Source: a virus. From it: a DNA stretch of 64,000 nt. The notes under the pieces are model-generated. The model was not told where the DNA came from. It did not search any database and worked only from the letters and a program-made list of their open reading frames with translations. Shown here one piece after another: positions 476-56,167 of this stretch (the stretch's first letter is position 1; each line of letters opens with the position of its first letter). Made by a program: the position numbers and the translations under genes. The stretch is from IMG/VR virus record IMGVR_UViG_3300028830_000319, positions 9,110-73,109 of that record; one strand, 5' to 3'.

Positions 476-3070
476 TTAAGTGTCTCCGTAGTAGTAGGGC
501 GACGGGTCTCCCCCGCCGAAGTCAAACAAAGCAAACACCTGAGAAGTTTCGCCGGGTGAACCGTTGGGGTTTACAGGTGAGCGTTTCGCGCATTCCACCC
601 AGTCAGCACGATAGAGCCCAGTCGTTTCGTCGTATGCAGCCCGCGCGCAGCCGTTTATCTCTCCCTCGAATAGAAAGTTCTCCGTTCCATTCACTCCGCC
701 GATGCCGACGCCGCGGAGGTAGTTTTCGACAAGGACGGTCTGCCCTGGAGTCACATCGATCGTCACGCTGGTGCCTTGATAGGCTCGCGTGATTTGCATC
801 GGGAACCGCGCGTTTTGCTTGGCGAATGCCGAAAGAACAAACCCTTCAAGAACGCAGGCTTGCTGATTTACCGGTGGAGTCGATCCACCACCGCCGCTTT
901 TCCACAGGTACCAGCGGTTGTCGGTCAGGTCTTTGGCGACATAGCATTTGTCGTTGTATTCGATCCGCACAGTTAGCGAATGATTGTACGCCGTCACCGT
1001 TGCACCGGTGGGGAGCGTGATGGGGATATTGCCACCGGCATCGACGCCGGGGGCAATCATCGTCAGGTGATAGAAGAAGTTGTCTTCGATCCGAATCACA
1101 TAGACATCACGCTTGTTTTCCTCGCTGCCGATCGTGGCGATCCGACGGGCAAGATAGATTTCACCGACGGTCAACGTTGCCTTCGACACCGAGAACGATC
1201 CAATGTCAGAGTTCAAGACAACGATCTTGCAATCGGTGCCGTTCGTGAGCGGATTTGAGCAATAGCCGCTCGGATTTGCCGACAAATCTTGAATGACCTT
1301 GCCGGACCAAGTGCAATTGGTCTCGTCGTACCCTCCACTGTAAACGGAGACCAGCGCCATCGCCGAATCGCCCGGAGTTCCGCCGGATCCGAATAGCCAA
1401 TAGCTTGGACCGGTCAAATCCTCGAAGACGCCAGCTGAGTCTCCAGACGTAAAGGATCCAATCGCTGTGGCAGTCACCGTCCTTCCGTCTGGAAGGGTCA
1501 CGCCAGTGGTTCCTCCAGACGCCACGCCCGGCGCCGTTACATGCCAAATGTAATTGGCCACGAGCGCCACGCATGGCACGCCGTTGACGTAGCTGCATGG
1601 GATCAGCTCGTTCTTGTTGCCATAGACCGGTGCGTAGTTGTAGACCTTGATGTCTTCGCCTGAGTCAACCCATGACGTGCCATCGAAGACGTAGAGGTTG
1701 ACGGTGGCCGAACCTGGCGAAACGGTTGTCGTGCCTTCGGCCGGCGGGATATTGCCATCGCCCCGCACCATCAGCCCGGAGTTCGACCGCTTGGTGCCGC
1801 GGCCAATGTCAGGTGGCATCAGGTTTTCAGCGCTGCCAGTGTCCGGCGCACCGGATCCGCTGAGCAATTCATTTCGGTGAATCTCAGTGATCGCACCAAG
1901 GTTTCCGCCAAGGTCGTACCATGCAACCTCGCTGATCTGAGAGCCAGGCAATATCGATTGATGCCAGCCGTTCAAATGCAATCGGTAGCGCGTCTGCGCT
2001 TTGACGATCTGTGAGACGTAGGCGGTCGCCTGGTCGTTGGCTCGCGCGTTCAGCACTGACCTGTTTGAGCTAGATATCGTTCCGTCCGCATCGACCACGG
2101 CCGTCATGTCGTCCCAAATCGGCATCACGGTCCCGGAGATCGCCCCTGTAATGCCCGTCGAGATGTCCACCGAGAAATACGGGGTCATTGCGATATTGCC
2201 GATACGCGTAGAGTCTTTCGCGGCGCCGAAAACAGCGTCCGACCGCTGGAAGAAAACGCGGACCGTTTGTGGAAGCCGTGAAGCGTCTCCCTGCGTGGGG
2301 AAATAGTTGTAATTGCGATACTTGTCGAGCGACGTAATGGCCGCGGAGAGCCCTGTCTGATTGACCGTCAAGGAAACAAACGCAAATGCATCCGTCACCG
2401 GGTTGTACTGGATCGCGCAATTGAGCTTGGCCAGAACCTGCTGAATGGCATCCCAGGCTGAAACGCCGAGGAAGCGGAAATTCTCCGGCGGATCACTTGG
2501 TGTGCTTGGCAGAGTTGGGCATGTGCCCGCGATCGAGGAAGACAAACGCTGCCACAGGTCTTGCAGCATGGTCTGCCAGGTCCAAGGCGAACCAAGGAAG
2601 ATGCTCTCTGCATAATAGAGATTGGCACCCGTTGCGCTATTGTCCGCGTAGGGATAGCGCACGTTGTATTGACCGCAGCCAGCGTCGCTTGACCCTTCGA
2701 TCCGGCCGATCGTTGACATCCCCAAGATCGCCCGTTTGTCGACGAGGCGCACCAGCATTGGCTGGTCATCAAGCTCGCTGTCCATCGCGAACATCGACAT
2801 ACCGCGCGCCACCATCAGCGACGGCATGGTGATCGAGCGATCATATTCGTCGACGATCAGATCGAGCGAATAGAATTTGTCCTTGTCGAGGCTGCGCAGG
2901 TCGGACTGCGTCATGAGTATCCAGCCTTCGCCGGACTGGCCGCCGAGTGGGCACCGAAATCCATTCGCGCGCCCGACCCAATCGTTCGGCAATCCAGCCT
3001 CTCCGGCAAACTCCGCCAACGAAGCGGGATCCAGGCAATCCATTCCTGCAAATCTGACGCGGCTCGACAT
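476..3070 (-). CDS. Tail tip/baseplate-fibre protein with duplicated C-terminal module
   Basis: 864 aa, structural operon; Gly/Thr-rich C-terminal half with two APGVxxGG...TLPxGxTVTA repeats. Confidence 0.6.
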   Translation of the reverse strand: MSSRVRFAGMDCLDPASLAEFAGEAGLPNDWVGRANGFRCPLGGQSGEGWILMTQSDLRSLDKDKFYSLDLIVDEYDRSITMPSLMVARGMSMFAMDSELDDQPMLVRLVDKRAILGMSTIGRIEGSSDAGCGQYNVRYPYADNSATGANLYYAESIFLGSPWTWQTMLQDLWQRLSSSIAGTCPTLPSTPSDPPENFRFLGVSAWDAIQQVLAKLNCAIQYNPVTDAFAFVSLTVNQTGLSAAITSLDKYRNYNYFPTQGDASRLPQTVRVFFQRSDAVFGAAKDSTRIGNIAMTPYFSVDISTGITGAISGTVMPIWDDMTAVVDADGTISSSNRSVLNARANDQATAYVSQIVKAQTRYRLHLNGWHQSILPGSQISEVAWYDLGGNLGAITEIHRNELLSGSGAPDTGSAENLMPPDIGRGTKRSNSGLMVRGDGNIPPAEGTTTVSPGSATVNLYVFDGTSWVDSGEDIKVYNYAPVYGNKNELIPCSYVNGVPCVALVANYIWHVTAPGVASGGTTGVTLPDGRTVTATAIGSFTSGDSAGVFEDLTGPSYWLFGSGGTPGDSAMALVSVYSGGYDETNCTWSGKVIQDLSANPSGYCSNPLTNGTDCKIVVLNSDIGSFSVSKATLTVGEIYLARRIATIGSEENKRDVYVIRIEDNFFYHLTMIAPGVDAGGNIPITLPTGATVTAYNHSLTVRIEYNDKCYVAKDLTDNRWYLWKSGGGGSTPPVNQQACVLEGFVLSAFAKQNARFPMQITRAYQGTSVTIDVTPGQTVLVENYLRGVGIGGVNGTENFLFEGEINGCARAAYDETTGLYRADWVECAKRSPVNPNGSPGETSQVFALFDFGGGDPSPYYYGDT

Positions 3071-3071
3071 T

Positions 3072-4094
3072 TCAGGCTGCTCTCAGGCGAGGACGTGTGC
3101 TCCAGCGCGGGTCCGGCCTGAAAGGTATATAGGGAAGTCGAGACTCAAGCGAGGGCTGGATGCCGGTGCGAAGCCATTCCTGCGCTTCGCCAACCCCCTT
3201 GCGCGCGGCGGCTTCGGTCGTGAGAAGATTGCGGCCGCATCGGCAGTTGTAACTCCAGGGCGGAGAAAATACGTCCCAGAACGGATCATCGGTCCGGTAG
3301 ATGTTGCTTCCGCCGATCCCGTAATGCATCAGCGCCAAGTGCTCAGGCCGCACGCGGCCGTCGTCAATTGCCAGATAGGCCTGATAGGGAAAGAGGCGAT
3401 TGACGATCGGGTTCTGCGCGAGATCGTCGTGCCCTTGCGAATAGGCCGTTTGCACGTTGGTGCGATAGACGTTTTCCAGATGTCCGGGCCCAATCTGGCT
3501 GGTCTCCAAGTCGCTCGCGAGACGCGCCTTGAACTCGCGCAGCGAAGGCCCCTCGGTCACGAGATCGCTGAGAGTGTCGCGCAGCTTGGTCAACGTCTGG
3601 TCCGATGAGATGCCGGCCACCGTGAAGGCCTGGGCCTTGGCATCACTGGCCAGGCGATCGAAATCTTCGCGCGTGACGATCTTCTTCTCGGCCAGGCGTT
3701 TGGCGGCCGCCTCGATCAAGGGAAAACGCACGATCGGTTCACCGCCGCCGGGTGGGTGAAAGATTGTCGAGACGCCGCGCGGAGGCTTGCCGCCGCTACC
3801 ACCGCCGAGTTCGGCAATTTGCTTCTCTGCCCAGGCTGGCAGCCGCTTGGCCACGAAGTCGACGCCAGAGATCCAGGCGGCGACCTCGGTATCATAGAGC
3901 GACTGAGCCAACATCGGCTCGAATTCGGCCAGCACGTGCCGCGCGAGGTTCAACAGCTGGTACGAATTGAGATGCGCTCGCGAACTAGCCAGCTTGTTGA
4001 TCAGTCGGCTGCGCAGCTCGGCCGCGATCGTTTCGGCGGCGATCAGCCCACGGCCGATCAGGCGGTCGACGTTGCGCTTGGGAGAATCAGCCAT
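3072..4094 (-). CDS. MuF/SPP1 gp7-like minor head (head morphogenesis) protein
   Basis: Motifs VYRTNVQTAYSQG, DDGRVRPEH, DDPFW...PPWSYNCRC; follows the portal. Confidence 0.9.
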   Translation of the reverse strand: MADSPKRNVDRLIGRGLIAAETIAAELRSRLINKLASSRAHLNSYQLLNLARHVLAEFEPMLAQSLYDTEVAAWISGVDFVAKRLPAWAEKQIAELGGGSGGKPPRGVSTIFHPPGGGEPIVRFPLIEAAAKRLAEKKIVTREDFDRLASDAKAQAFTVAGISSDQTLTKLRDTLSDLVTEGPSLREFKARLASDLETSQIGPGHLENVYRTNVQTAYSQGHDDLAQNPIVNRLFPYQAYLAIDDGRVRPEHLALMHYGIGGSNIYRTDDPFWDVFSPPWSYNCRCGRNLLTTEAAARKGVGEAQEWLRTGIQPSLESRLPYIPFRPDPRWSTRPRLRAA

Positions 4095-6381
4095 TGCCGC
4101 CTCGTTGGCGGTTTGGGCTGATAATGGCGATTAACGGTCGGTTGAACGTACGTCGCGCATCGGTTCGTCGGCCCAATTGTGTAGATTTTTCGTCGGATGG
4201 TCTGAAATGTCGACGATCCGGGAATGCTTTTTCGTAGTCGTCGATGACCCGGCGATATTCGCGTTTGGCGTCGTCTCGCGATTGGTCGAAGCCGACTCCA
4301 ATGAATTCCCCGCGGCCGGCAATTCGTTCTGATTTGATGCCATAATGCTCGGTCACCTTATCAATTGAGTCAGCCAGAATGTCGTCGAGATCGACAACTA
4401 AGACCTGCGGTTTGCCACTCACGCCCACACCGATAGACCGCGAATCGATGCCATGCTTGGTTAGCGTTTCGCGGACGCCATTAATTGTATCGTTCGGCTG
4501 GAACAAATAGACAGAGCCCTTTTCGCCTTTTTTCTCTTCAAAAAGAAGTACCGCCTTCTGATCCGCCAGCAAGCCTTTCCAGGCCATAGCATAACGAATG
4601 TCTTCGTAATCTCCGCCCACATAATTCGTTACGACACTGTCCTCCGCACCGTCGCCCCAATCTCCGACAACGCTAAAACTGGCAAACGACAAGCCGAGAT
4701 CGTGGTCAATTGTGTCGAACTGGCGTTTGGCCTGGCGATGCTTTGGGCTGTCCATATTGTCCAAAGCTTGGTCAAAGCTCAGGTTTTCTTCCGTGTTCGG
4801 GCTGGCAAACCCTGACGCCCGCTTCGGCTTCGCGTCGCCGGCGGCTGCTTCGATTTCCGCCTTTTGATCGTCGGTTGCCTTGGCCAACTCTTCGCCCGGG
4901 ATAAACTGACCGCCTTTGTACTCTTTGCCGGCAATCGTCATATTGTGCGGCGCGCGGGCTTGGGCCATGCGCAGCCGTTGCCCCATTTCTCCGCGTACGG
5001 CCTCGACAAGCTTTGCCGCGCCGACAATACCCTCGCCGACCAGAGCCGCGGCGACCTGTTCACGCCGCAGACTCATTGCGACTGCGTCGGACTCACCATC
5101 GCCCTCGCTATAACCGATCCGCTGCTGGGCAGGGTAGTGGGATCCGCCGTCGCCACCCTGGTCTTGTTTCTGACCGGCATTGGCTTGCTCCATGGCCTGG
5201 AGAGCCAGCGGCTTGAAACTGATCTCGAATTCGTGGGCCTTCCCCCAGTTGAGCATGATGCCAGTCTCGATCGCCGAGCGCTGCACCGCGCCGACGATAG
5301 ACGTTCCCCAGCGGGTAAGGCCGCTGTAGAACGCCTGCATCGGCACGGCTTTTCCAGCCCAGGCTCCTGTTGCCTCGCTGGTCAGAACGTCATCGGGGAT
5401 TTCAATGCCGCGGAGCATTTCGACGTCTGAGTCTTTAGGGTAGGCCAGGATATGTCCTGGGTTTGAGGCTACCACTGCCCGCTCCAACGTCCACATGGGT
5501 TTGCCATTTTGGTCGTATTGGTTCGGCATCACGACTACGCCACCGGCCTTGATCTGCTCTGCCATCTGCCGGGCGATGTCTCTGTTTGGAACAGAAAGTA
5601 CCGTACCGTCGGGCTGCGCGATTTCCATCATGCCTGGGGGATATCCGACGGTAGCGCCGCCATAAGCGTCCTTGTGCATGAACAGTCGTCGCACGTCGAG
5701 GCCACCACCATCGAGCCACTTATCGGCCCAGGGGCTATAGGCGCCGCGCAGGATTCCATAACCGTAGTGGGAGCCGTCCTCGGGCATGAATGGGTGCCAA
5801 TAGGCCTTGCCCAAAGGCAAGTCAATATGCCCGACGCTGGTTTGTGGCACGCGCCGAAAGCGGACGCCAACAACCTGACCATTTTGTTCGAGCGCGCGCA
5901 CGTCGCTGGCATGTCGAGTCAGGATGCTTTTTACATCTAGTTTTCCTGATTCGTTCAGCCCCCAAACGATTTCACCGCCGCACCACCCCCAAACTTGATC
6001 GAGCATCATCCGCGGCAAATCCCTCATCCAAATCGCTCGCAATTGCTTCAAGATCCACGCGGCGACTTCTGGATCTTTGCACCGCACGCCCGGGATCCAG
6101 TCCTGCCCATCTTGATACGCCCACTCAAGGCCTTGGATCGGCGCCGCTCGCATGGCCAGACCGAGACGAATGGTCGGCTCCCACAACATCGCGCGGATCA
6201 TCATGAAAGTGAAGGGCGGCAGGTCACGCGGCGCGATCCCCCACAGGTCGATGGGATTGGGCGAATAACGCGCCGTGGCTGGCGTGGAATGAGCCACCTG
6301 CTGCGCGACGCGATCAGGCAACGCGGTTTCGTTTTGACCATGGCCCGCGTAGGCGACAAAGACATTACCCCAAGGCTGCAT
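4087..6381 (-). CDS. Portal protein (Mu gp29/DUF935-like) with C-terminal extension; start uncertain (longest ORF begins 6408)
   Basis: Portal-like segments (LTRHASDVR, YGYGILRGAYSPW); immediately upstream of MuF; about 280 aa extra after YKGGQFIPG. Confidence 0.8.
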   Translation of the reverse strand: MQPWGNVFVAYAGHGQNETALPDRVAQQVAHSTPATARYSPNPIDLWGIAPRDLPPFTFMMIRAMLWEPTIRLGLAMRAAPIQGLEWAYQDGQDWIPGVRCKDPEVAAWILKQLRAIWMRDLPRMMLDQVWGWCGGEIVWGLNESGKLDVKSILTRHASDVRALEQNGQVVGVRFRRVPQTSVGHIDLPLGKAYWHPFMPEDGSHYGYGILRGAYSPWADKWLDGGGLDVRRLFMHKDAYGGATVGYPPGMMEIAQPDGTVLSVPNRDIARQMAEQIKAGGVVVMPNQYDQNGKPMWTLERAVVASNPGHILAYPKDSDVEMLRGIEIPDDVLTSEATGAWAGKAVPMQAFYSGLTRWGTSIVGAVQRSAIETGIMLNWGKAHEFEISFKPLALQAMEQANAGQKQDQGGDGGSHYPAQQRIGYSEGDGESDAVAMSLRREQVAAALVGEGIVGAAKLVEAVRGEMGQRLRMAQARAPHNMTIAGKEYKGGQFIPGEELAKATDDQKAEIEAAAGDAKPKRASGFASPNTEENLSFDQALDNMDSPKHRQAKRQFDTIDHDLGLSFASFSVVGDWGDGAEDSVVTNYVGGDYEDIRYAMAWKGLLADQKAVLLFEEKKGEKGSVYLFQPNDTINGVRETLTKHGIDSRSIGVGVSGKPQVLVVDLDDILADSIDKVTEHYGIKSERIAGRGEFIGVGFDQSRDDAKREYRRVIDDYEKAFPDRRHFRPSDEKSTQLGRRTDARRTFNRPLIAIISPNRQRGGNG

Positions 6382-6954
6382 TGGTATCTCGCTTGATTTG
6401 GTTTTCAAGGAAGGCCGTTTGAGCGGCTAACGCCAGCTCCGGATCGCCAAACGCCGTGAGGTACAGGTGATAAACGCCTCTGTAATCCAGTCCGGCAAAG
6501 TCGCCACGTTCGATCTTGGCCTGCGCCTTGAGACGCGGAAGGTTGGCCATTAGTCCGATTTGCTGGCCACGCGAAAGTAAGCAGCCGTTAATGCCGAACT
6601 CCCAGCTTATTTGGGCAACTCGCTCATGTTTTTTTTTAGATCAGACCAGGCCTTCGTGACCTTGTGCCACAACTGGTAGGCCAGCGAGGCGGTGCATCCC
6701 TCAACACCTTCAGAGCGGAAAACGTCGGTCAGGTCTCGTAGGAACTCGGGCGTAGCTTTCCAGCCCTTTTCATACACTCCATGTCGTGTGGTGAGCGCTT
6801 CGCATGCCAAGCTGGCTGACATGACGTCGATTGCCACGACCTTGCCGTCGAGCTCGCCGCCGCGCACCCGCAGGCTGAGTGTCCCGTCGAGAATGTCTTG
6901 CGGTTCGTCGTGCGATGCAGCGGCTTTAGGTGTTCGGCTGGTCCGCTTGGCCAT
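6365..6954 (-). CDS. Tail assembly chaperone GT-like -1 frameshift product (about 196 aa)
   Basis: A9 run at 6629-6637; the -1 frame is open (KKHERVAQISWEFGINGCLLSRGQQIGL) straight into ORF 6365..6550. Confidence 0.75.
6607..6954 (-). CDS. Tail assembly chaperone (G-like)
   Basis: RBS GAGGGGA before ATG 6954; slippery CTA AAA AAA AAC near the 3' end. Confidence 0.7.
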   Translation of the reverse strand: MAKRTSRTPKAAASHDEPQDILDGTLSLRVRGGELDGKVVAIDVMSASLACEALTTRHGVYEKGWKATPEFLRDLTDVFRSEGVEGCTASLAYQLWHKVTKAWSDLKKNMSELPK

Positions 6955-16841: not shown

Positions 16842-17525
16842 ATGTGCGGACGATTCAATCTGAAAACCAACCCGCGCATATTCGGCGACTTTTTTTCAGT
16901 CGCGGGCAATCTCGACATTGAGTGGCGTCCCTCTTACAACATCGCCCCGACCCAAAACGTCGTTTGCGTTCGCGACGCTGACCAGCGGGAATTCTTCAAG
17001 GCCCGTTGGGGCCTGATCCCAAGCTGGGCCAAAGACGCCAAGATTGGTGCAAGCTGCATCAATGCCAGGGTCGAAACCGTGGACACGAAGCCGGCCTTTC
17101 GATCAGCGTTCAAGAAACGGCGGTGCCTGGTCATGGCCGATGGCTTCTACGAGTGGCGGCGGAGCGACAAACAGCCGTTTTTCATTAGCCTGCAATCTGG
17201 CGAACAAATGGCATTCGCTGGCCTCTGGGAAACATGGAAATCTCCTGAAGGACTGGTCGAGAGCTGCACGATTTGCACCACCGACGCCAACGACATGATG
17301 GGCCGGCTTCACGATCGGATGCCAATCATCTTACCGCGGGCGATTGTGGATCACTGGCTGGATCCGAAGGTCAGTGACGCAGACGAATTGAAGCCGATGC
17401 TGCGGCAGTTCCCGGGCGAAGAGATGCAAGCATGGCCGGTAGCTAAGGCCGTGGGCAATGTCCGCAATCAGGGGCCCGAATTGATGGAGCCGATCGGACC
17501 GGCCGAGGATGTCGATTTTGCTTGA
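16842..17525 (+). CDS. SRAP/HMCES (YedK-like) abasic-site protecting protein
   Basis: Begins MCGRF; YNIAPTQ, INARVET, RCLVMADGFYEW, HDRMP. Confidence 0.95.
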   Translation: MCGRFNLKTNPRIFGDFFSVAGNLDIEWRPSYNIAPTQNVVCVRDADQREFFKARWGLIPSWAKDAKIGASCINARVETVDTKPAFRSAFKKRRCLVMADGFYEWRRSDKQPFFISLQSGEQMAFAGLWETWKSPEGLVESCTICTTDANDMMGRLHDRMPIILPRAIVDHWLDPKVSDADELKPMLRQFPGEEMQAWPVAKAVGNVRNQGPELMEPIGPAEDVDFA

Positions 17526-17759: not shown

Positions 17760-19154
17760 ATGCTCATCTCATTTTCAGTTGCCAACTTCCGCTCTTTCGG
17801 AGAGGAAGTGACTCTAAATATGGTCGCGAGCAATAAGCTCTCAGATCACGAGAACCACTTGGTGCCAATTGGCGACACGGGAAGATCGGCCCTCAGGACG
17901 TCCATAGTCTATGGAGCCAACGCTGCCGGGAAATCCAACTTAGTGCGAGCAATAGAATTCGCACAGCGAATGGTATGCGGCGGAACTGACGGCCCGCGGT
18001 TCGCAACTCCATTTGGCTTTGGCGCGGAATGGAAAACCAAGCCAAGCTCTTTTGAATTCCGGTTCCTCGTCGACACCCATGTGTTCATTTACGGGTTTGA
18101 CATTATGGGTAATCGATTCGTTGGTGAATGGCTTAGCCTACTGACCCGGGGCGACAATGAGGTTGCGCTGTTTAACCGCAATGAGCAAGACAAGGTGACT
18201 ATTGAAGAAGTCAATGTTAAACGGTTTTTTGGCTCTGATGTAGTCATGCGCAATACGCTGGATATTCTTTCTCAGATCCCGTTGAGACCTGACCAGCTTT
18301 TCCTGAAAAGAGTACTGAGCCTTCCGGATGCAGCGCAAGGCAAAACGATGCTTTCGATTATCCGCTGGTTCACAAAGACCTTACTTGTACTGCCTGTTGA
18401 ATCTCGTTGGTCAGGGTTGTTTGATCGCTTGCAAAACGACGAAAGGTTCACGGACTTTTGCTCGCGGTTCCTGAGCAATGTGGGAACTGGAGTCGGGCGC
18501 TTGAACCTTTTAACCCAAGAGCGTGAAGGGCAAGAATGGGAAAAGCATGTGATTGAGCGCATGGCTACGATGGGCAGCCGCTACAAGGACCCATTCTTTG
18601 AAGCCGATTCCGATATTATCGAAGTCCCCGATAATCCCGGTATGGTCATAGAGCGCAAGCTGCTTTCTGAGCATCATATTTCTCCGAACAAATATCATCT
18701 ACCCTTCTCAGAGGAGTCTGATGGAACCCAATCCCTTCTCCATCTTATGCCTATTCTTGCTTCTCCTCCCGATGAGTCGCTTGTGGTTGTGATCGACGAG
18801 CTGGATCGCAGTCTGCATCCTCTTATCTGCTGGGAGTTTGTTCGGTTCTTCAGTGAATCATGCCTTGGAGCGCATCGTCAGCTTATTGTGACAACCCATG
18901 AAGCTCACTTGTTAAACCAGGAGTTGCTCCGGCGAGATGAGTACTGGTTTGCAGAGAAAGACGCTCGCCAACAGACACAGCTTACTTCTCTTATAGACTT
19001 TAAAATCCGGAGCGATCTCAAAGTCGACAAGGGGTACTTAAACGGTCGATTCGGGGCTATTCCTTTGATTGGTGGGATGCACGAACTCGAAAGGCTCCTT
19101 GAGTGCGGCAATGAAGGGGAGGCTGGCAATGCCACCGAAGCATCGTCCACTTGA
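17760..19154 (+). CDS. RloA-like AAA/ABC ATPase (AAA_21 family)
   Basis: YGANAAGKSN Walker A, EESDGT signature, VIDELDRSLHP, TTH. Confidence 0.85.
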   Translation: MLISFSVANFRSFGEEVTLNMVASNKLSDHENHLVPIGDTGRSALRTSIVYGANAAGKSNLVRAIEFAQRMVCGGTDGPRFATPFGFGAEWKTKPSSFEFRFLVDTHVFIYGFDIMGNRFVGEWLSLLTRGDNEVALFNRNEQDKVTIEEVNVKRFFGSDVVMRNTLDILSQIPLRPDQLFLKRVLSLPDAAQGKTMLSIIRWFTKTLLVLPVESRWSGLFDRLQNDERFTDFCSRFLSNVGTGVGRLNLLTQEREGQEWEKHVIERMATMGSRYKDPFFEADSDIIEVPDNPGMVIERKLLSEHHISPNKYHLPFSEESDGTQSLLHLMPILASPPDESLVVVIDELDRSLHPLICWEFVRFFSESCLGAHRQLIVTTHEAHLLNQELLRRDEYWFAEKDARQQTQLTSLIDFKIRSDLKVDKGYLNGRFGAIPLIGGMHELERLLECGNEGEAGNATEASST

Positions 19155-19746
19155 CAGAGAAAGCGGAATAGAACGTGACGCAAGTCTTGTCGTTATCGCA
19201 TCCGAGGACAGGTATGCCGCATCTCAATATTTCGGACGATTCAGAACACGCAAAGTCAAAATAATTGTCGACCATACCGCAGACAACAATTCATCTCCGT
19301 CGCATGTCCTGGAACGGTTGCGCAATAAGGTAAGGGAGCTAGAAACTGCTGAGGGAGACTCATTCTGGATTTGCATTGATCGCGATAGGTGGAAGACACA
19401 CACGATCGGAAAGGTGATTCACGAGTGCCGGAAGCGGAATTTCAAGCCTGCAATAAGTCATCCATGCTTTGAATTTTGGGTGCTGCTACATTTTCAAGAA
19501 CCTGCAGACATCAATCACACTTCATGCGAAAACGTCTGCCGATTATTGCGAGAACATCTTGGGGGAGGCTATGGGAAGGAGTGCTGTCGGACAGCATCCA
19601 TCACTAAAGAGATGGTAGCTGCGGCAATGGAACGAGCTCGTTCTATCGACCCGAACGATGACAATGTGCCGTCAGTCAACATGACACATGTCTATAAAAT
19701 CCTCGAAGAAATCGTGAACAAGGATGGAATAATTAACTTTTCCTAG
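19129..19746 (+). CDS. RloB-like (TOPRIM-fold) protein
   Basis: VIASED, WICIDRD, SHPCFEFWVLLHF; overlaps the ATPase gene; RBS GGGGAGG. Confidence 0.85.
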   Translation: MPPKHRPLDRESGIERDASLVVIASEDRYAASQYFGRFRTRKVKIIVDHTADNNSSPSHVLERLRNKVRELETAEGDSFWICIDRDRWKTHTIGKVIHECRKRNFKPAISHPCFEFWVLLHFQEPADINHTSCENVCRLLREHLGGGYGKECCRTASITKEMVAAAMERARSIDPNDDNVPSVNMTHVYKILEEIVNKDGIINFS

Positions 19747-30483: not shown

Positions 30484-30557
30484 GCGGCGGTAGCTCAGTT
30501 GGATAGAGCAGCGTGGTTCTAACACGATGGTCGCAGGTTCGAGTCCTGCCCGCCGCA
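30484..30557 (+). tRNA. tRNA-Arg(UCU), no encoded CCA
   Basis: Acceptor GCGGCGG/CCGCCGC; D-arm GCTC-AGTTGGATA-GAGC; anticodon loop GT-TCT-AA; T-arm GCAGG-TTCGAGT-CCTGC. Confidence 0.93.
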
Positions 30558-48492: not shown

Positions 48493-49377
48493 TTAAACTT
48501 GGAGATTCCAAAAACGGCATTCCTGCTTGACGCCCAGGCTATTTGCGGCACGCTCGATGATTTCTTTAAGATTTCGCTGGTCCCACCCGGAGTAGAGCGA
48601 CATATTCCATAATGGCTTTGACATCGACGTAAATGCGGTGGCAGCAATATTGTGAGCGTGCATCGCATTGAATGTCTTAATTATTGCGATTGCCTCATTT
48701 CCGCCGATCGCGATCTCGAGTTCATCAACTCGTTGGTAGCAGAGCTTGTGAATTGCCCAGGAATGTCCGTGAGCAACTGCTGACAGATTTCGATACTCCA
48801 GCGCTTCGCCTAATTCATCGCCAATTACGGATGTTGCTGAGTATTGCGGAACGCCAATTGCTTTAATCACCCCTTTTTTATCTCTCGTGATCTGGCACCC
48901 AAACGATTGTGCAACAGTGGCAAGTTGTTCTTGTTTGGCGACGATAAACTCAGACTGATCCGTAGGATTGTTCTTTGCTTCTGAATACTTAAGAAACTCG
49001 ACTAGCCCATTGAACCTTACCGCAAGGTAGCGTTTGATTCGCTTCTCGATAGCAATGGAAGGATCGACGAGCCATGAGGCCAAAGCACATGACTCGAGCA
49101 TTGATCGCGCGATCGTGGCATACGCCAATCCATCTATTGGTGGAGTCAACACTTTAGAGATTGCTGATAGATGGTCGGCGCTCAGCTCAATTTGAAATCG
49201 CGCAACGGCTATAGCAGAAACAATGAGATCTCCGCGCTCTGAAGCGAGGTCAGTTGCATGAATTGAGCCGTTTGTTGGCTGCATGCCGTGCTCTTGAACA
49301 AAGTCCTTGACGTCGCTCCAGAAGCGAACAAGGGCCTGACATACCATTGACATTCTATCTGAATCAGTCATCGGCAT
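48493..49377 (-). CDS. HEPN-like (DUF5677-like) helical protein
   Basis: IARSMLES...WL; YRNLSAVAHG (Rx6H); AT-richer than flanks. Confidence 0.55.
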   Translation of the reverse strand: MPMTDSDRMSMVCQALVRFWSDVKDFVQEHGMQPTNGSIHATDLASERGDLIVSAIAVARFQIELSADHLSAISKVLTPPIDGLAYATIARSMLESCALASWLVDPSIAIEKRIKRYLAVRFNGLVEFLKYSEAKNNPTDQSEFIVAKQEQLATVAQSFGCQITRDKKGVIKAIGVPQYSATSVIGDELGEALEYRNLSAVAHGHSWAIHKLCYQRVDELEIAIGGNEAIAIIKTFNAMHAHNIAATAFTSMSKPLWNMSLYSGWDQRNLKEIIERAANSLGVKQECRFWNLQV

Positions 49378-49448: not shown

Positions 49449-50306
49449 TCAGGGATCATCTCCTCTCCACGGCCGGCAGTCTGGATCGAATCCCAACGCG
49501 TCGGCGAGCCGATCAAATGCCGCAATGGCCTGGGCCGTTTCGTGGCCGCCATACACCAAGAAGCGTTTTATTACTGTCGATATTGCCATGACTGCGGTGA
49601 TCACTAGAAGGCAATGGTTTCCTGCGTCATCCTTTTGTTCGATAACTCCCGACAGCATTCCATCATGATCAACCACTTGGCCTGTCTCTTTGTAAACGAC
49701 AGCAAGCGTTGCCCAGATTTGCCCGTGGGCAACGCCTGAGAGCAGGCGATAGTCCAGCTCGCTTCCAAACACTTCGTTGCTAATTGCGGTAAACGGCATT
49801 CTTTTCTTGGGAATGCTACAGCCTATTGCGGTCGCTTCCGCTTGAAGTTCTACGAGTTTATTCTTGACCCAATTCGGGTTATGGTTTGGATCCTTGGCTG
49901 AAACCGCAAATTTGTTATGCTCCACCAGCGCGTCATTCCTTATCGAGAAGACGAGGCTTGCTCGTGCCATTGCCGACAGTGCTGGATTCATGATCCACGC
50001 GCCAAGTGCTGATGACTCTACAACGCCCCTGGCGCACGTCCAGCATGCCATCTGAAGCGGTGGTTCGTTTGCGGTGCGACAGAACGCAGTCAGGTGATCA
50101 ATTGCGGAATGGATCAATGTCGACGCGATAGAAATCCCTGCCATCACCTGGGACATGCCTACAGAAGCCTGGGCTTCGGTTTGCGCCGTCGATCCGGCAA
50201 TGGGCTTGCCGTTCGTTGCAGTAAGAACTTGTTCGATGTCAGCGACGAGTCGAGGAATGGACTCCCGAATCAACGCCAGCTTGTGCCGGTCATCCGTAGA
50301 AAGCAT
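49449..50306 (-). CDS. HEPN-like (DUF5677-like) helical protein, distant paralog
   Basis: CARGVVES...WI; YRLLSGVAHG (Rx6H). Confidence 0.55.
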   Translation of the reverse strand: MLSTDDRHKLALIRESIPRLVADIEQVLTATNGKPIAGSTAQTEAQASVGMSQVMAGISIASTLIHSAIDHLTAFCRTANEPPLQMACWTCARGVVESSALGAWIMNPALSAMARASLVFSIRNDALVEHNKFAVSAKDPNHNPNWVKNKLVELQAEATAIGCSIPKKRMPFTAISNEVFGSELDYRLLSGVAHGQIWATLAVVYKETGQVVDHDGMLSGVIEQKDDAGNHCLLVITAVMAISTVIKRFLVYGGHETAQAIAAFDRLADALGFDPDCRPWRGDDP

Positions 50307-50435: not shown

Positions 50436-50759
50436 TTATGCCTCGCCCTGGCCTCGCCTCGCTGGGCAGGGCTGTTTGACCCGCTCCTGTAGCACGGCGA
50501 TCTCGCGGGACTGTTCATGCACCTTCTTATCCAGCTCGCCGTGATGGTTCCACAGCTTGTCGATCTGCGCGAGCATTTTGTCGTTGCCGTCTTCGATGCG
50601 GACCAGCGTCTTATTGACGGCCTCTAATTGGCTCTCGTTAGAGCCTTTCCACTCGCCAATGCGATTGGAGACCTTGATGGCTGCTGTGAACACCGTGACG
50701 GCAAGGCCGGCGATCGTGAGGACGATAGCCAAGACGGGAAGGACCGATGACGTTTCCAT
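50436..50759 (-). CDS. Membrane-anchored coiled-coil protein (XhlA/holin-like)
   Basis: One N-terminal TM helix, then a heptad coiled coil. Confidence 0.55.
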   Translation of the reverse strand: METSSVLPVLAIVLTIAGLAVTVFTAAIKVSNRIGEWKGSNESQLEAVNKTLVRIEDGNDKMLAQIDKLWNHHGELDKKVHEQSREIAVLQERVKQPCPARRGQGEA

Positions 50760-50860: not shown

Positions 50861-51202
50861 CTAAGCGTTCCCTGCCGGCAGGTCTTGCGGCGTGCCAAGC
50901 GGCGCGTCGCCGAAGCTGGCAACTGCGCCAGCCACGACCTCGACCGTGAACGCACCGGTGGCCTTGCCATCGCTCACCGTGATCGTGACGGCCCCGAGCT
51001 TCGGTGGTTGAGCCGCGGCACAGCGCACGGCCAGCGGAATGGCCGCGCCGCCGGCGTCGAGAGCGTTGCCGACCGTCACAATCGACGGGTCACTCGACGT
51101 GAAGGTCAAGGCGTTCGGTTCGGTTGTCGGCAGCCCTGCCGCATCCAAGGGGGTCAGCCCCACGTCCTGATACTGATTGTCGCCGATCGTATATTTGCCC
51201 AT
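50861..51202 (-). CDS. Small Ig-like (Big_2-type) domain protein; ORF could start at 51451
   Basis: LTFTSSDPSIVTV...GAVTITVS; RBS GGAG before ATG 51202. Confidence 0.65.
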   Translation of the reverse strand: MGKYTIGDNQYQDVGLTPLDAAGLPTTEPNALTFTSSDPSIVTVGNALDAGGAAIPLAVRCAAAQPPKLGAVTITVSDGKATGAFTVEVVAGAVASFGDAPLGTPQDLPAGNA

Positions 51203-51221
51203 GTTGATTTGCTCCAACGGT

Positions 51222-51252
51222 AAAAAAGAAAACCGGGCTACGGGGCCCGGTT
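51222..51252 (-). terminator. Terminator-like hairpin
   Basis: AACCGGGC/GCCCGGTT stem followed by TTCTTTTTT on the minus strand. Confidence 0.5.
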
Positions 51253-51507
51253 GTTGGGGTTTGGAAACGCGAAGTTGATTGCGCAGGACCTGAGCGAAAA
51301 TGACCGTGACGCCGTCCTGCGTTGCGCCCGACTGCATCGCGTTGCGGTACAGCGGATAGAGATCAGCATCGAAATACCCAGCAGGTAGCTGCAGCGGAAG
51401 GCTTTTGGACCCGAACGCTAAAGCCAGGTGCTGGGGTATTTCGTGCTGCATGGTGATTGCCCTAATTCGGCGTCTGGGGACTACCGACGCTTACCGACAG
51501 CAGTTTG

Positions 51508-52029
51508 CTAGTTGGTACGGATAACTTGCCGACTGCGGATCGTTTGCCGCTGTGGGGCCAATACGGCCGTAGGAACGGCCACGGGAGCCGCGGCAGTGAC
51601 GACGGCCGCCGACGTGACAGCCGCTGCGCAATTTCGCCGTCCAAACAGATGCGGTCGACAACTCACCGGGGTAGCGGCCAGGACGGGCGTGGCAGCAAAG
51701 GTGGTTACCGCGGGCAAGGCAGCAGCAACAGGGACAGCGGACGTGACGGTCGCAGTCTGGAAGACCGGAACGGCCTGAGTCACCTGCATGAAGCTGGTCA
51801 CCGGTACAGCGGCTGCTTGCACGGCCTGGAACTGGGATACCACCGGCGCGAAAGCCTGGGGACCAGGAACCACGCACGGATCGACCGCGGGCACCGCGGG
51901 CTGAATCACGGGCTTTTGAACGACTTGCCCGTCACAGGCGATTGCGAAGGTCGGCGCTAAGGCCATGAACAGCATCGCGACGGCCACGAGGGCGAACAAC
52001 ACATTGAGGCGTTTCTTTTCATTTCCCAT
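51508..52029 (-). CDS. Exported Ala/Val/Pro/Thr-rich low-complexity protein
   Basis: Basic-hydrophobic signal peptide ending AIAC; contains CRPHLFGRRNC. Confidence 0.65.
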   Translation of the reverse strand: MGNEKKRLNVLFALVAVAMLFMALAPTFAIACDGQVVQKPVIQPAVPAVDPCVVPGPQAFAPVVSQFQAVQAAAVPVTSFMQVTQAVPVFQTATVTSAVPVAAALPAVTTFAATPVLAATPVSCRPHLFGRRNCAAAVTSAAVVTAAAPVAVPTAVLAPQRQTIRSRQVIRTN

Positions 52030-52143
52030 GATGGGGAACTCTCCTAAATAGTTGGCGGCGGACAGGTAACGAACAATGCCCACGGCGACCTTTTTGAGAG
52101 ATCGCCGTGGGCGCGCAACAAGGGTTTGTACGAGCGTTTGAGC

Positions 52144-52455
52144 TTACTTCGCGGCGACGTTGCTCAGCGCCGGAGTATTGGCCTGGATCGCCAGCAGCGC
52201 TTTCAGGCTGACGCCGGTTTTGGTGCGCTTGGCGATTTGCATCTGCGGCACGTCAGCCGTGGCCGGCAGGGGCGAATACGTTCGCGCGGCGAGGGTCGGC
52301 GTCAAGTTCTGCGCGGTGGCTTGCACCGGCGCGGCTTGGTTGACGTTGCAGTTCATCATCGGAGCCCGGCGGCCGAACAAAGCGGCTTCCGCGGGGGCCG
52401 AGAATCCCAGGCTGACGATTGCCACAGCACAAAGATCCATCAACAGACCACGCAT
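52144..52455 (-). CDS. Small exported protein
   Basis: Signal peptide ending AEA, then ALFGRRAPMMNC. Confidence 0.6.
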   Translation of the reverse strand: MRGLLMDLCAVAIVSLGFSAPAEAALFGRRAPMMNCNVNQAAPVQATAQNLTPTLAARTYSPLPATADVPQMQIAKRTKTGVSLKALLAIQANTPALSNVAAK

Positions 52456-52489: not shown

Positions 52490-53290
52490 TCACTTGTTGC
52501 CCTGGAGGACACTGGCGACGTGTTCTAGTAAAGCCGCCTCACTCGGTCCACCCCTAGATTCTCCGCCGGCCGTGGCCGCATCCGCGAACAAGTCGCGACA
52601 GTTTTGGAAAAACGATTTTCCATTGGTCACGCCGAGCCATGGCGCCAGCGCCGGGCCGAGTTTGAAAGAGGCAGCGACCGACCAATCGTCAACGGCTCGC
52701 GCGGGCGATTTTCTTCCCTCGCGGATCGCCTTGGCGACCTCGAGCGCCGCTTCCGCGATCGAAGTTTGCTCCACCTGACGGTTCGCACTGGGCACGCATT
52801 CGGCCCAACGCCGTATCAGTGTGGCCGGATCGGAGGCTGACTCTGCGGGCGCGTGGTCGGTAACCATGCGCGGCTTTTCGACGATCCCGACCCAGATTTC
52901 TTGGCGCGAGAAACCCTTTGCTACCCCTGTGGCCATCACCCGGATCGTGTAAACACCCGGCGCGCCAGTGAATCGCACGCGATGATGCTCCCCGTCGAGG
53001 ATCGTGTTATTTTCCCCTGGGTCGGGGGATACCATCACATCCCAATCGCGCACCGGTCCGCCCGCATTTTCAATTTCGACCGTGACGATGTTGTGCTCTT
53101 CAACGGCCTTCGGCGCTTTGAGCCTGATCGCTGGGGCTGCAGTCTGATTTCTGACCGGCAGCACGGGCGCCAAAGGCGGAGCATTTCCTTTGGTAGTTTC
53201 CGGCTGTAGATCAGCCACATCGGCCCCGGCGCCAATCGCGAGGCAAATGCACAGTCCGGCCGTGAGGTACATCGCAGCACGTTTTTTCAT
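52490..53290 (-). CDS. Exported protein (beta-sandwich plus helical domain)
   Basis: N-terminal signal peptide; coupled to the cytochrome gene. Confidence 0.65.
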   Translation of the reverse strand: MKKRAAMYLTAGLCICLAIGAGADVADLQPETTKGNAPPLAPVLPVRNQTAAPAIRLKAPKAVEEHNIVTVEIENAGGPVRDWDVMVSPDPGENNTILDGEHHRVRFTGAPGVYTIRVMATGVAKGFSRQEIWVGIVEKPRMVTDHAPAESASDPATLIRRWAECVPSANRQVEQTSIAEAALEVAKAIREGRKSPARAVDDWSVAASFKLGPALAPWLGVTNGKSFFQNCRDLFADAATAGGESRGGPSEAALLEHVASVLQGNK

Positions 53291-54402
53291 GGTCTTGCCT
53301 CGTGCGGGTTAGGGCGAAAGGGGTATTTGTCAGGCGAGTTTTGGAAACCGAGCGTCAGGAAATCAACCAGGTCGGCGGCCTCAGCGTTGGTGAAAGTGAT
53401 CTTGGCCACCGATGGATCAATGCCGTTAGCGCGAAAGACCTGGCCGTTCACGGAGAACCGGCCGCCAAATTGAAAGTAGCCAACGACTTCCTCGATCGTC
53501 TTGAGCGATCCGTCGTGCATGTACGGCGGCGTGCGTGGGAATTCGATCAGGCTCGGCGTCCGGAACTTGAAGTTGTCGCGTGGGTCCTGGGTTACCGCGC
53601 CACGCCCTGTGTCGGTCGACCTCGAGCGCGCGGAGATCCCGAGATTGTGGAATTTGTCGTTTTGCCAGGCATTTTCAGGATCGTGGCATTCGATGCAGTG
53701 GATTTGAAACACCTGCCAGCCGCGGATGGCGCTGTCCGGCAGGCCGGTCTCTTCGCCCCGGTAGAGCTTGTCCGCCGGCAAGTCGCGGCTGTCGATCGAT
53801 GAGACGAAGGCCACCAAGCATTCGCGCAGCTGTGCCTCAGTGATTCCCAGCGTGCCATAGGCGATCGAGGCCAGATACCGATATCGCGGCCGCAAGTTGA
53901 TCCGTTCCACCACGGCCGCGACGCTTGGCATGCCGCACACCAGCGGATCGGTTACCGCTTGAAGAGTCTGCGCATAGAGTGACCGGGCCCGGCCATCGCG
54001 ATCTTGGAGTTTGTCCTTACGCCGGCCGGCGCCGATTATCGACGGCGTGTTGCGCACGCCGACCAGCCCGAGCCTCGCTCCGGACGTGTTGCGGGCACCA
54101 ACCGCCACCTTTAAGCCATCGGACCAGCCTTTGAGCGGATCCGGATTATGGCACGTCGCGCAGCTTACCGTCCCTTGGAGCGATAGCACGCCAGCATCAA
54201 AGAACAGTTCATAGCCAAGTTGTTCCTTGGCGGCCTCGCGAGAGATGGCCACCTGCTGGCCTCGCGCAAATGAACAGAGCCATGCCAGCAAAAGGAGTAG
54301 CAATAGAAACACGACGCGCCAGGGGGACCATCGGGACGGATAGACAACACGACGGCCACCAAATTCGGTTCCGATCAATCCGCGAAAGTCTTCCCTGGGC
54401 AT
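53287..54402 (-). CDS. Di-haem cytochrome c of the bCcP/MauG superfamily (divergent)
   Basis: LGYELFFD, SCATCH, RNTPSI, CIECH, FRTPSL, PYMHDGS; signal/TM segment. Confidence 0.9.
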   Translation of the reverse strand: MPREDFRGLIGTEFGGRRVVYPSRWSPWRVVFLLLLLLLAWLCSFARGQQVAISREAAKEQLGYELFFDAGVLSLQGTVSCATCHNPDPLKGWSDGLKVAVGARNTSGARLGLVGVRNTPSIIGAGRRKDKLQDRDGRARSLYAQTLQAVTDPLVCGMPSVAAVVERINLRPRYRYLASIAYGTLGITEAQLRECLVAFVSSIDSRDLPADKLYRGEETGLPDSAIRGWQVFQIHCIECHDPENAWQNDKFHNLGISARSRSTDTGRGAVTQDPRDNFKFRTPSLIEFPRTPPYMHDGSLKTIEEVVGYFQFGGRFSVNGQVFRANGIDPSVAKITFTNAEAADLVDFLTLGFQNSPDKYPFRPNPHEARP

Positions 54403-54416
54403 CGTTGATATCTCCG

Positions 54417-55232
54417 TTACTGAGACATAGCGTCCAGCACACGCTGGCGCCGCGAAAACTTGGGAACGTCCGTTTGCGTCGTGTTGTTGGCCAGCAGCAC
54501 GTGCGCGCTACGAGAGGGCAACAGCTGGTCGACGATCTGGCAAAAATGCTCGACGCCCGGATCCATGGCAGCGTTCACCGTGGTCCAACCGCCGGCCGCG
54601 CGGAACTGGCGAATGCCGATATAACCGCCGGTCAAAAGCCCGCTGACCTGCCCGCGGCGATCGATCGCGAACGCTTCCTTGAGCGCGCCGGTAAACGAGT
54701 ATTTGCCTTCGGATCCGGTGGGCACTTCGCCGCCAAACCACCACGGCAAGACGAAATCGGAGACTTTGACGCCGTTGATGTCATAGCCGAATTGATCGGC
54801 TTCGCAGGCGTCGCAGACTTCCTGCGCGATGATCGCGGTGATCGATCCGCGAAACCCGCCCATTTGAGTGTCGATCACCACGACGCTAGTGACGTAGGGA
54901 TCGTAAAGCATCTCCAGCAGCTCGTGACTGAGGGTGACCGAGACCGATCCACCGGCCGCCATGTCGTCTTTGACTCCCACGATTCCCCAGGGCTTGCCCT
55001 GCTTGGTCATGTGGTACCCGAGCGCGCCGGGTTGATCGGCCGAATCCGACAACACGAGCGGCCAGGCAGCAGCGGGGGACTGCGCGCCGCGCGGCACAAA
55101 CAGCAGGTCCGGAGCAATGCCGTACCACGGGGCGAAGTCTCGCGTAACTTGGATTTGGAGAGCCGGGACGATGGCCTGGACGTCGTTGTCCGACAACACG
55201 GACGTATCGTTGATGATTGCAACTTGAGGCAT
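54417..55232 (-). CDS. Zincin-like metallopeptidase (HExxE variant)
   Basis: GALGYH, TLSHELLEMLYDP, EVCDACE, VSDFVLPWWF. Confidence 0.65.
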   Translation of the reverse strand: MPQVAIINDTSVLSDNDVQAIVPALQIQVTRDFAPWYGIAPDLLFVPRGAQSPAAAWPLVLSDSADQPGALGYHMTKQGKPWGIVGVKDDMAAGGSVSVTLSHELLEMLYDPYVTSVVVIDTQMGGFRGSITAIIAQEVCDACEADQFGYDINGVKVSDFVLPWWFGGEVPTGSEGKYSFTGALKEAFAIDRRGQVSGLLTGGYIGIRQFRAAGGWTTVNAAMDPGVEHFCQIVDQLLPSRSAHVLLANNTTQTDVPKFSRRQRVLDAMSQ

Positions 55233-55421
55233 CGAGCAAGATCCTTTGAACTTGGATCACTCACGCGGATTTATTAGGTCCCCACACTTCTCGCGTGACG
55301 AAGAAGTGACCTCGCGTCCCCACCGTACATGTCAGACGAAAAGCAGCCTGCCCGGCGCCGTCATGGCGCCGAGCAGGAAAAAAGACTGGCTGGGCAATCC
55401 ATTCGTCCGTTCGCCCGTCCG

Positions 55422-55963: not shown

Positions 55964-56167
55964 TCAGCGTTTGGCCTGTCGAAAAGGATCGCCTTTGGCT
56001 CGCACGATCGCGTTGTAAACCTCCTCGCGATGTACTGCGACGTTTGAACTTCCAGTGATTCCGAGGCGGACTTTGTCGCCGCGAATGTCGACGATCGTCA
56101 CATCGATAAGCTCATTACCTACGACGATCTTGATACGCTCTTCGACGGCTCGTGATAACACCAACAT
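55964..56167 (-). CDS. csrA: Carbon storage regulator (RNA-binding) homolog
   Basis: MLVLSR...I.VTIVDIRGDKVRLGI...VHREEVY. Confidence 0.93.
   Translation of the reverse strand: MLVLSRAVEERIKIVVGNELIDVTIVDIRGDKVRLGITGSSNVAVHREEVYNAIVRAKGDPFRQAKR

Follow-up and report, generated by a model that had tools for sequence, protein, structure and literature searches.

A phage-encoded di-haem protein of the CCP_MauG superfamily with replaced active-site residues and two conserved exported neighbours

A 64,000-nucleotide stretch of a provirus in IMG/VR (hereafter the window; bases 9110-73109 of the 74.4-kb record IMGVR_UViG_3300028830_000319, completeness 71%), whose host was probably a planctomycete, carries a gene for an exported di-haem protein of the CCP_MauG fold (P0001, 53287..54402). 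Coordinates are those of the window, and features lie on its minus strand unless marked (+). The protein is a new phage-specific variant of the CCP_MauG superfamily, and the two exported proteins encoded immediately downstream, a two-domain partner and a small Cys protein, stand outside described families. The conserved company of these two proteins is probably the sign of a hitherto undescribed periplasmic redox module specific to phages. The explanation that we favour, at roughly even confidence, is that the di-haem protein serves this module as a redox subunit without peroxidase activity, together with its co-translated partner and the small Cys protein.

The first-pass annotation of this DNA had read the gene as a di-haem cytochrome c with both CxxCH sites and the scaffold of bacterial cytochrome c peroxidase (bCcP) and MauG, and profile, sequence and structure comparisons all agreed. 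The 371-residue protein matched the Pfam family CCP_MauG (PF03150) with 100.9 bits against a gathering cut-off of 25.6 (E 1.4e-28); this score, the two domains of the fold and the two c-type haem motifs place it in the PF03150 superfamily. In a phmmer search of Protein Data Bank (PDB) chains the best match was the bCcP 3O5C (E 8e-22), followed by MbnH 6E1C (5.7e-21), with MauG at about 1e-15. An AlphaFold2 (AF2) model built on 85 relatives had a mean predicted local distance difference test score (pLDDT) of 92.4, and Foldseek matched it to MauG, YhjA, BccP and MbnH at E ~1e-17 and template modelling (TM) scores of 0.65-0.70. Both haem motifs, CATCH (C81-H85, 54148..54162) and CIECH (C236-H240, 53683..53697), were invariant in 85/85 aligned relatives. 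The N-terminal region (residues 1-47, 54262..54402) consists of a basic stretch, a hydrophobic, Leu-rich segment at residues 27-46 and an SFA/RGQQ site, and is therefore a Sec signal; residues 27-46 are helical in the AF2 model, where pLDDT is low ahead of the helix.

Active-site residues were mapped by HMMER alignment to PDB chains, in an 85-sequence MAFFT alignment, and against one MauG from a Methylobacterium plasmid, annotated within a mauE-D-A-amicyanin-J-G cluster. Against this MauG, the inter-haem Trp aligned with Arg135, Gln with Gln145 (kept), Pro with Ala149, Glu with Val155, and the Tyr ligand with Phe310. Arg135 (53998..54000) thus occupies the position of MauG Trp93, and in HMMER alignments to 3O5C, 1IQC and YhjA it falls, within LQDRDGR, on the Trp of QFWDGR. 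Phe310 (53473..53475) takes the place of the residue that serves haem 2 as sixth ligand, Tyr in MauG and MbnH and Met in bCcP. In the MbnH alignment Phe310 (VVGYFQFGGR) falls on the Tyr of DIYSEGGR, and the Met of bCcP (ETMG) shares its column in an ungapped reading; Tyr309 lies one residue before it. These alignment columns hold Arg135 in place of the inter-haem Trp of canonical bCcPs and Phe310 in place of their Met ligand (Tyr in MauG). The first-pass annotation had already read FWDGR as QDRDGR and had noted Phe, preceded by Tyr, at the haem 2 ligand position; both readings held, and alignment restored neither Trp nor Met. It had not described the remodelled distal pocket (53938..53958), which runs from Ala149 (MauG Pro107) to Val155 (MauG Glu113) and is followed by Cys156. 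The Gln/Pro/Glu triad (MauG Gln103, Pro107 and Glu113) is thus incomplete, with only Gln145 retained. Asn118, Thr282 and Pro283 are present in the alignment; going by bCcP structures, we provisionally take these columns to correspond to the ligands of the Ca2+ site between the haems, namely the Asn of the RN.P motif and backbone carbonyls.

The consequences of such replacements can be judged from BthA, a Burkholderia di-haem peroxidase. All of bCcP, MauG and BthA conserve the Gln/Pro/Glu triad, and the BthA mutation E277Q abolished both peroxidase activity and bis-Fe(IV) formation, while Y463H abolished bis-Fe(IV) (Rizzolo et al., PMC6405878). BthA naturally has Ser257 in place of the inter-haem Trp (PMC6405878) yet keeps the triad, so that loss of the Trp has a precedent by itself, whereas the combined loss has none. 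Since Glu and Pro are both gone, and E277Q already inactivates BthA, H2O2-driven chemistry of the MauG type is unlikely for the window protein and for the clade, described next, to which it belongs. More generally, because Pro, Glu, Trp and Tyr/Met have all been replaced and Gln alone is kept, the alignments make either peroxidase or MauG/MbnH-type bis-Fe(IV) chemistry unlikely.

The replacements are common to a clade of 17 sequences. A word-index search returned five relatives with 43-55% identity, after which identity fell to 38% or less; the named sequences in this lower range include the nearest cellular homologues, Planctomycetota proteins with the annotation cytochrome c peroxidase (34-38% identity). 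Ordinary host chromosomal peroxidases, which would have refuted the first-pass reading, were not among the close relatives. A profile of six sequences was searched against 1.84 billion cluster representatives and gave a graded list, from which 85 sequences were aligned; the clade comprises 17 cluster representatives (P0001-6 and P0121-131). All 17 clade members have Ala149, where 99% of the outgroup has Pro, and all 17 have Asp152, where 81% of the outgroup has Asn. Val155 was found in 16/17, the clade signature there being Val/Thr, against Glu in 100% of the outgroup, and Trp246 likewise in 16/17, against Phe. Position 135 was R, A, G, S, C or T in the clade and never Trp, the residue of most of the outgroup, and position 310 was Phe in 12 members and Lys in five, where the outgroup has nearly always Tyr. 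The window protein fits this signature throughout, with Ala149, Asp152, Val155, Trp246 and Phe310, no Trp at 135, and genes for a partner and a small Cys protein downstream. A further Cys, at position 146 beside the position of MauG Gln103, occurred in 15/17 clade members, in 4/4 sequences of a sister group and in 2/64 other relatives. One clade member carries its pocket Cys at 145, and the window protein has Thr146 and instead Cys156, beside the former Glu position.

In a quick IQ-TREE analysis (LG+C20 with posterior mean site frequencies, PMSF) the 17 representatives were monophyletic on a stem of 0.8 substitutions per site, with a value of 100 in the Shimodaira-Hasegawa-like approximate likelihood ratio test (SH-aLRT), the only support measure for this unrooted tree. 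Parsimony from the outgroup states would place the residue losses on the clade stem. For the closest pairs, the ratio of non-synonymous to synonymous substitution rates (dN/dS) was 0.12-0.24 for the di-haem gene, 0.13-0.31 for the partner gene and 0.23 for the small gene; dS was saturated for more distant pairs. The di-haem gene is therefore under selection and not decaying.

The gene had been taken to be phage-borne and unusual phage cargo, and both points stood. At 3-15 kb the window encodes a Mu-like portal, MuF, Gp36 and a decoration protein, and at 32-48 kb it has DnaN, a C5 methylase and helicases. A RuvC-like protein, phrog_10105/DUF6475, DUF1376 and a RecT-like protein are encoded at 57-64 kb, on the strand of the cassette. 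The nine clade loci examined were all phage-like, four of them (the window, L010, L014 and L015) being long enough for their context to be judged. L010, a 42.5-kb IMG/VR contig, encodes ParB, HNH, a LamG protein and TerL. L014, a 68.7-kb contig, is syntenic with the window (RecT, an AAA protein, DUF1376, DUF6475, a RuvC-like protein and CsrA) and also encodes a resolvase. The position of the cassette relative to the packaging genes varies between phages: in L010 it directly precedes HNH and TerL, but not in L014. A place directly before HNH and TerL is typical of lysis genes.

No PHROG family matched the di-haem domain, and a tblastn search of 50,697 deposited phage records (INPHARED) gave no clade member, only five weak hits, mostly to host contigs or fragments. 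A pattern scan with the clade profile found none in 185,579 species genomes (one per species), returning only canonical MauG-type enzymes with at most 35% identity (L016 was checked). A scan of IMG/VR added L010 to the clade; its three remaining matches proved to be canonical enzymes with W, Q, P, E and Y. Among the data sets listed as containing matching sequence, those of DNA were bioreactor and soil metagenomes, and no RNA set was listed. A literature search found no published account of phage-borne CCP_MauG proteins.

The first-pass annotation had also proposed translational coupling to exported proteins, and this arrangement is conserved. The stop codon of the di-haem gene overlaps the start of the next gene in an ATGA, and that gene (52490..53290) encodes a 266-residue protein in which a signal peptide and a Pro/Ala linker precede two domains, an immunoglobulin (Ig)-like beta-sandwich at about residues 53-138 and a bundle of helices at about 155-262; the domains have pLDDT values of 80-98 in an AF2 model. 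A homologue of this partner (266-391 residues) lies directly downstream in 9/9 clade loci and also in both sister loci. In 7/9 clade loci the two genes overlap at the di-haem stop, the others having a 14-nucleotide gap (L014) and a called 73-residue open reading frame (ORF) between the genes (L015). Trp203, Trp218 and an S-F-F motif were among the invariant residues of a seven-member alignment; when the partners of L014, L015 and the sister loci were added, S-F-F remained nearly invariant but Trp203 and Trp218 did not, the sister alignment being uncertain there. Foldseek and ESM Atlas searches with the partner returned only generic Ig, PKD and BIG2 folds and uncharacterised two-domain proteins, together with a low-TM match to He_PIG-CCP_MauG fusion proteins, which is a lead only. 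Complex prediction for the di-haem protein, two haems and the partner gave a median score of 0.01 and a single run at 0.45, values that we count neither for nor against a complex.

The third gene (52144..52455) encodes a 103-residue exported protein, probably disordered, with a signal peptide, a basic stretch and an invariant M-x-x-C-N motif (MMNCN here); its ATG at 52455 follows an AAGGA ribosome-binding site. Small exported proteins of about 100 residues are encoded in 8/9 clade loci, the ninth contig ending before the corresponding place. The mature N-terminus reads G-R-x-R-R-G-x-M-M-x-C-N, in which M33, C36 and N37 are invariant and C36 is the sole invariant Cys. Atlas matches to the small protein were uninformative, and no match to the partner, the small protein or the other genes of the module was found in PHROGs, Pfam or NCBIfam.

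The nearest relatives of the clade form a sister group of four sequences (P0134, P0137, P0141 and P0145; SH-aLRT 98), represented by loci L025 and L027. They keep Gln, Pro, Glu and Tyr and carry Cys146, while the inter-haem Trp has already been lost. This lineage is phage-borne as well (L027 encodes DUF5131, DUF6475 and RuvC), and its cassettes contain homologues of the protein encoded upstream of the di-haem gene (E 5e-4) and of the overlapping Ig/helical partner (E 1.6e-15), as well as a small, basic, multi-Cys exported protein (GRLIGRRGGGDC...). Both sister cassettes also encode an exported thioredoxin with WCPHC or WCEVC; no thioredoxin was found when the clade loci were searched. With Glu and Tyr kept, H2O2-driven chemistry of the MauG type is plausible for the sister lineage. 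In L025 the thioredoxin gene (6138-6939), called as 239 residues, shares its 3' part with another frame (6490-6939), whose product has a signal peptide and then AIGFRRRCGGGCG... and is the sister small protein, so that the called thioredoxin probably extends too far.

Comparison with described systems places the phage protein near several of them and within none. MauG (3L4M, TIGR03791) has the same two-domain di-haem c fold (Foldseek E ~1e-17, TM ~0.7), shares the PYMHDG motif, and likewise has a gene adjoining that of an exported protein, here a candidate substrate. It was also the best NCBIfam match, although at 131.8 bits the curated cut-off of 443.85 was not reached. The phage protein differs in carrying Arg for Trp93, Ala for Pro107, Val for Glu113 and Phe for Tyr294; moreover, no mau genes were found in the window, the partner has Ig and helical domains in place of the beta subunit of methylamine dehydrogenase (MADH), and the locus is that of a phage. 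MbnH (6E1C, TIGR04039) was the second-best PDB match by sequence and the best by TM score normalized to the query (0.70), shares with the phage protein an extended loop after the GGR motif, and is paired with a periplasmic partner, MbnP. However, its model matched with 118.5 bits against a cut-off of 362.85, the phage partner matched no MbnP model, and MbnH keeps the Glu (DPIEMG), the Tyr (DIYSEGG) and a Trp beside the inter-haem position. BthA (6NX0) shares the absence of the inter-haem Trp but is structurally less similar (Foldseek E ~1e-11), and it retains Gln/Pro/Glu, Tyr-His ligation, H2O2 reduction and bis-Fe(IV), whereas the clade lacks Pro, Glu and Tyr. The bCcPs of Shewanella (BccP, 3O5C) and Nitrosomonas (1IQC) have the same fold and the Asn118 column, and include the best PDB match, but unlike them the phage protein lacks the inter-haem Trp, the catalytic Glu and, as judged from its ligand columns, a His/Met haem, and it has a phage context and dedicated partner genes. 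The HXS-associated MauG-like family (TIGR03981) matched with 82.4 bits against a cut-off of 340, and Pfam and NCBIfam scans found no radical-SAM genes nearby. A marginal match to the gamma subunit of hydrazine synthase (HZS-gamma, NF052341) scored 23.8 bits against a cut-off of 625, and no alpha or beta subunits accompanied it. RoxA is a dioxygenase. The likeness to HZS-gamma and RoxA is that of a CCP/MauG fold hosting chemistry other than that of a peroxidase, with no sign of a Cys-haem cross-link in the phage protein. In HZS-gamma NO is reduced by the haem gamma-I, which is linked to the protein through a third Cys (PMC12607021).

Taken together, the gene encodes a Sec-exported c-type di-haem protein of a phage-specific lineage descended from MauG-type peroxidases. 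On the clade stem the machinery of peroxide activation and hole-hopping (Pro, Glu, Trp and the sixth ligand) would have been replaced, while purifying selection has kept both haem sites, the fold and the putative Ca2+-site Asn. The host cytochrome c machinery would mature the protein in the periplasm, where it would work with the Ig/helical partner and the small Cys protein in a single envelope module encoded by the phage. Electron transfer to or from these two neighbours would be its likeliest activity. Haem 2 is predicted to be five-coordinate or His/Lys ligated, since Phe310 cannot ligate iron and the Lys found at this position in 5/17 members could. A candidate reaction is the oxidation of Cys thiols at a hydrophobic, Cys-bearing pocket of haem 1. 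SoxAX and TsdA are His/Cys haem-c enzymes that make S-S bonds. Given this precedent, the pocket Cys, the one Cys that is invariant in the small protein, the exported neighbours that also bear Cys and the thioredoxin of the sister lineage, thiol-directed electron transfer by the di-haem protein is the most concrete proposal that we can offer. Lysis, superinfection exclusion and remodelling of the envelope in the lysogen are candidate purposes.

Several observations weigh against this picture. The clade-invariant Asp152 might stand in for Glu as the acid-base residue, and with Gln145 also present, residual peroxide chemistry is possible. The window protein has Thr146 and Cys156 in place of the Cys146 of the clade, so that the idea of a Cys pocket is weaker for this copy. 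The haem ligands were assigned from alignment columns only, and the support for the partnership is gene order and overlap only. Finally, the sisters with intact pockets keep the same neighbours, so a shared role may not need the residues that the clade has lost. A more far-reaching version, which we hold only tentatively, is that tailed phages of Planctomycetota-like hosts carry a periplasmic redox system of their own, in which a MauG-derived enzyme with a hydrophobic, Cys-bearing pocket would perform chemistry undescribed for the fold, either oxidative Cys or S-S coupling or gas-ligand chemistry. It would act on the two exported proteins encoded beside it, and the purpose would be a remodelled host envelope that serves lysis, the exclusion of superinfecting phages or evasion of defence.

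Two other explanations also assign the protein a role in the module. It could be a structural or pseudo-enzyme component of an envelope, lysis or superinfection-exclusion system of the phage. Its haems would then be no more than a scaffold or a sensor of redox state or gases, and the protein would work by binding and not by catalysis. The loss of all the classical catalytic residues would fit such a role, as would the position of the gene within a run of exported and membrane proteins, which in L010 immediately precedes HNH and TerL; that place is typical of lysis genes, the packaging genes themselves are confirmed, and no endolysin domain was found in those window ORFs that were scanned. On the other hand, neither CxxCH motif varies among sequences of about 40% identity, dN/dS is low, a c-type di-haem protein would be costly as a mere scaffold, and the place of the cassette relative to the packaging genes differs between phages. 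We consider this explanation possible but unlikely. A maturase resembling MauG or MbnH, as the first-pass annotation had suggested, would use H2O2 or O2 to modify a partner residue such as Trp203 or Trp218, or the small peptide, with Asp152, Gln145 and Cys156 forming an alternative pocket. Part of that suggestion stood, in that the tight and conserved coupling to an exported partner parallels MauG with preMADH and MbnH with MbnP; the Glu and Pro of the peroxide pocket, however, proved to be lost as well. The best NCBIfam scores were those of MauG and MbnH, and conserved Trp residues are present in the partner. MauD is thioredoxin-like. The sister lineage, which keeps Glu and Tyr, carries a thioredoxin much as the mau cluster carries the accessory MauD. 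The inter-haem Trp is, besides, dispensable in BthA (PMC6405878). Against this, the changes Glu113 to Val, Pro107 to Ala and Tyr294 to Phe/Lys are fixed in the clade, a single Glu or Tyr mutation suffices to abolish bis-Fe(IV) in BthA (PMC6405878), and the partner is neither MbnP nor MauA and matches nothing in Pfam or NCBIfam. A maturase in the clade therefore seems to us rather doubtful.

Two further explanations carry less weight. A periplasmic cytochrome c peroxidase of the ordinary kind, taken over from the host and acting as an auxiliary peroxide-detoxifying enzyme, would agree with the Pfam family, the fold and the annotation of the nearest cellular homologues in Planctomycetota. Yet the catalytic Glu, Pro and Trp and the sixth ligand are all gone, a long stem parts the clade from cellular enzymes, the 185,579 species genomes contained no clade member in the pattern scan, and bCcP loci are not marked by partner genes of this kind. 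Capture of a host peroxidase as an auxiliary metabolic gene was accordingly rejected on the missing residues, the long stem and the conserved partner genes, and we regard it as very improbable. Least probable of all, to the point of being barely credible, is a host gene or decaying passenger in a wrongly delimited provirus. The provirus class of the IMG/VR record and its completeness of only 71% would allow it, but phage genes lie on both sides (RuvC-like, DUF1376 and RecT-like on one; DnaN, methylase and helicase on the other) and the same cassette occurs on other viral contigs, so that mis-delimitation is contradicted by synteny across independent contigs. A pseudogene was likewise rejected, the frame being intact and dN/dS indicating purifying selection.

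The surrounding genes extend the cassette. Upstream, 54417..55232 encodes a 271-residue protein without a signal peptide, probably co-transcribed with the di-haem gene, whose GGAG ribosome-binding site lies 14 nucleotides past the upstream stop codon. Homologues of 250-280 residues precede the di-haem gene in six further loci (L005, L010, L014, L015, L025 and L027), and ESM Atlas features place the protein in a large unnamed family with many members in Uroviricota. Its invariant residues include H74, S102-H103-E104..E107, D111, E138, D141 and E144. It looks like an undescribed metal-dependent phage enzyme. Two GC-rich, terminator-like stem-loops exactly enclose the upstream, di-haem, partner and small genes, one upstream of this four-gene unit (55347..55377; 13 bp, 11 of them GC) and one just past the small gene (52078..52112; 14 bp). 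Both are matches to a consensus only, and the bracketing is merely suggestive, since the regional count of terminators did not exceed that of shuffled sequences. Promoter matches in the region were at chance level.

Beyond the small gene lie genes for a low-complexity, Cys-bearing exported protein rich in Ala, Val, Pro and Thr with repeats of an LFGRRNC motif (51508..52083), a 196-residue protein whose C-terminal half is BIG2-like by eye (50861..51451), and a 107-residue protein with an N-terminal membrane segment and a coiled coil, also by eye (50436..50759). Only the 196-residue protein had a homologue detectable by BLAST elsewhere, in L014; for the two others the counterparts at other loci are positional analogues, and those of the low-complexity protein are likewise Cys-bearing and of low complexity. 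Its LFGRRNC motif echoes the LFGRR..MMNC at the mature N-terminus of the small protein, encoded one gene upstream. Two ORFs of similar size (294 and 285 residues) further on (48493-49377 and 49449-50306), with no match in Pfam, PHROGs or NCBIfam, lie in the most AT-rich stretch of that half of the window (GC 0.51 against about 0.59) and may be a moron or defence pair. In one relative, L003, an S8 peptidase with a LAGLIDADG-domain intein (866-3085) lies upstream of the cassette and an HNH endonuclease gene (5813-6331) has been inserted between the partner and small genes.

Elsewhere in the window, a CsrA homologue (55964-56167; NCBIfam CsrA E ~1e-15, under the equivalog cut-off) is encoded upstream of the di-haem cassette, a position kept in L010 and L014, and suggests post-transcriptional manipulation of the host. 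A gene for an SOS-response-associated peptidase (SRAP; 16842-17525 (+), E 3e-75) adjoins a pair encoding an AAA_21 ATPase and an RloB-like protein (17760-19746 (+)); these genes lie inside the structural-gene region, on the strand opposite to the cassette. A tRNA-Arg(TCT) gene (30484-30557 (+)) marks the point where the two divergent gene blocks of the provirus meet.

For the transfer of electrons and radicals over long distances the bCcP/MauG superfamily serves as a model, and its mechanistic residues Trp93, Gln/Pro/Glu and the Tyr or Met ligand have been treated as near-universal. Here a natural lineage under selection keeps both haems and drops nearly all of the mechanistic residues, and a sister lineage in the same gene neighbourhood retains them, apart from the Trp. 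The two provide a ready-made evolutionary experiment on the capacity of the scaffold. The di-haem, partner and small proteins are all small enough for direct heterologous work. Phages can thus carry c-type cytochromes with dedicated exported partners, which points to a periplasmic redox biology in infection or lysogeny that is essentially unexplored.

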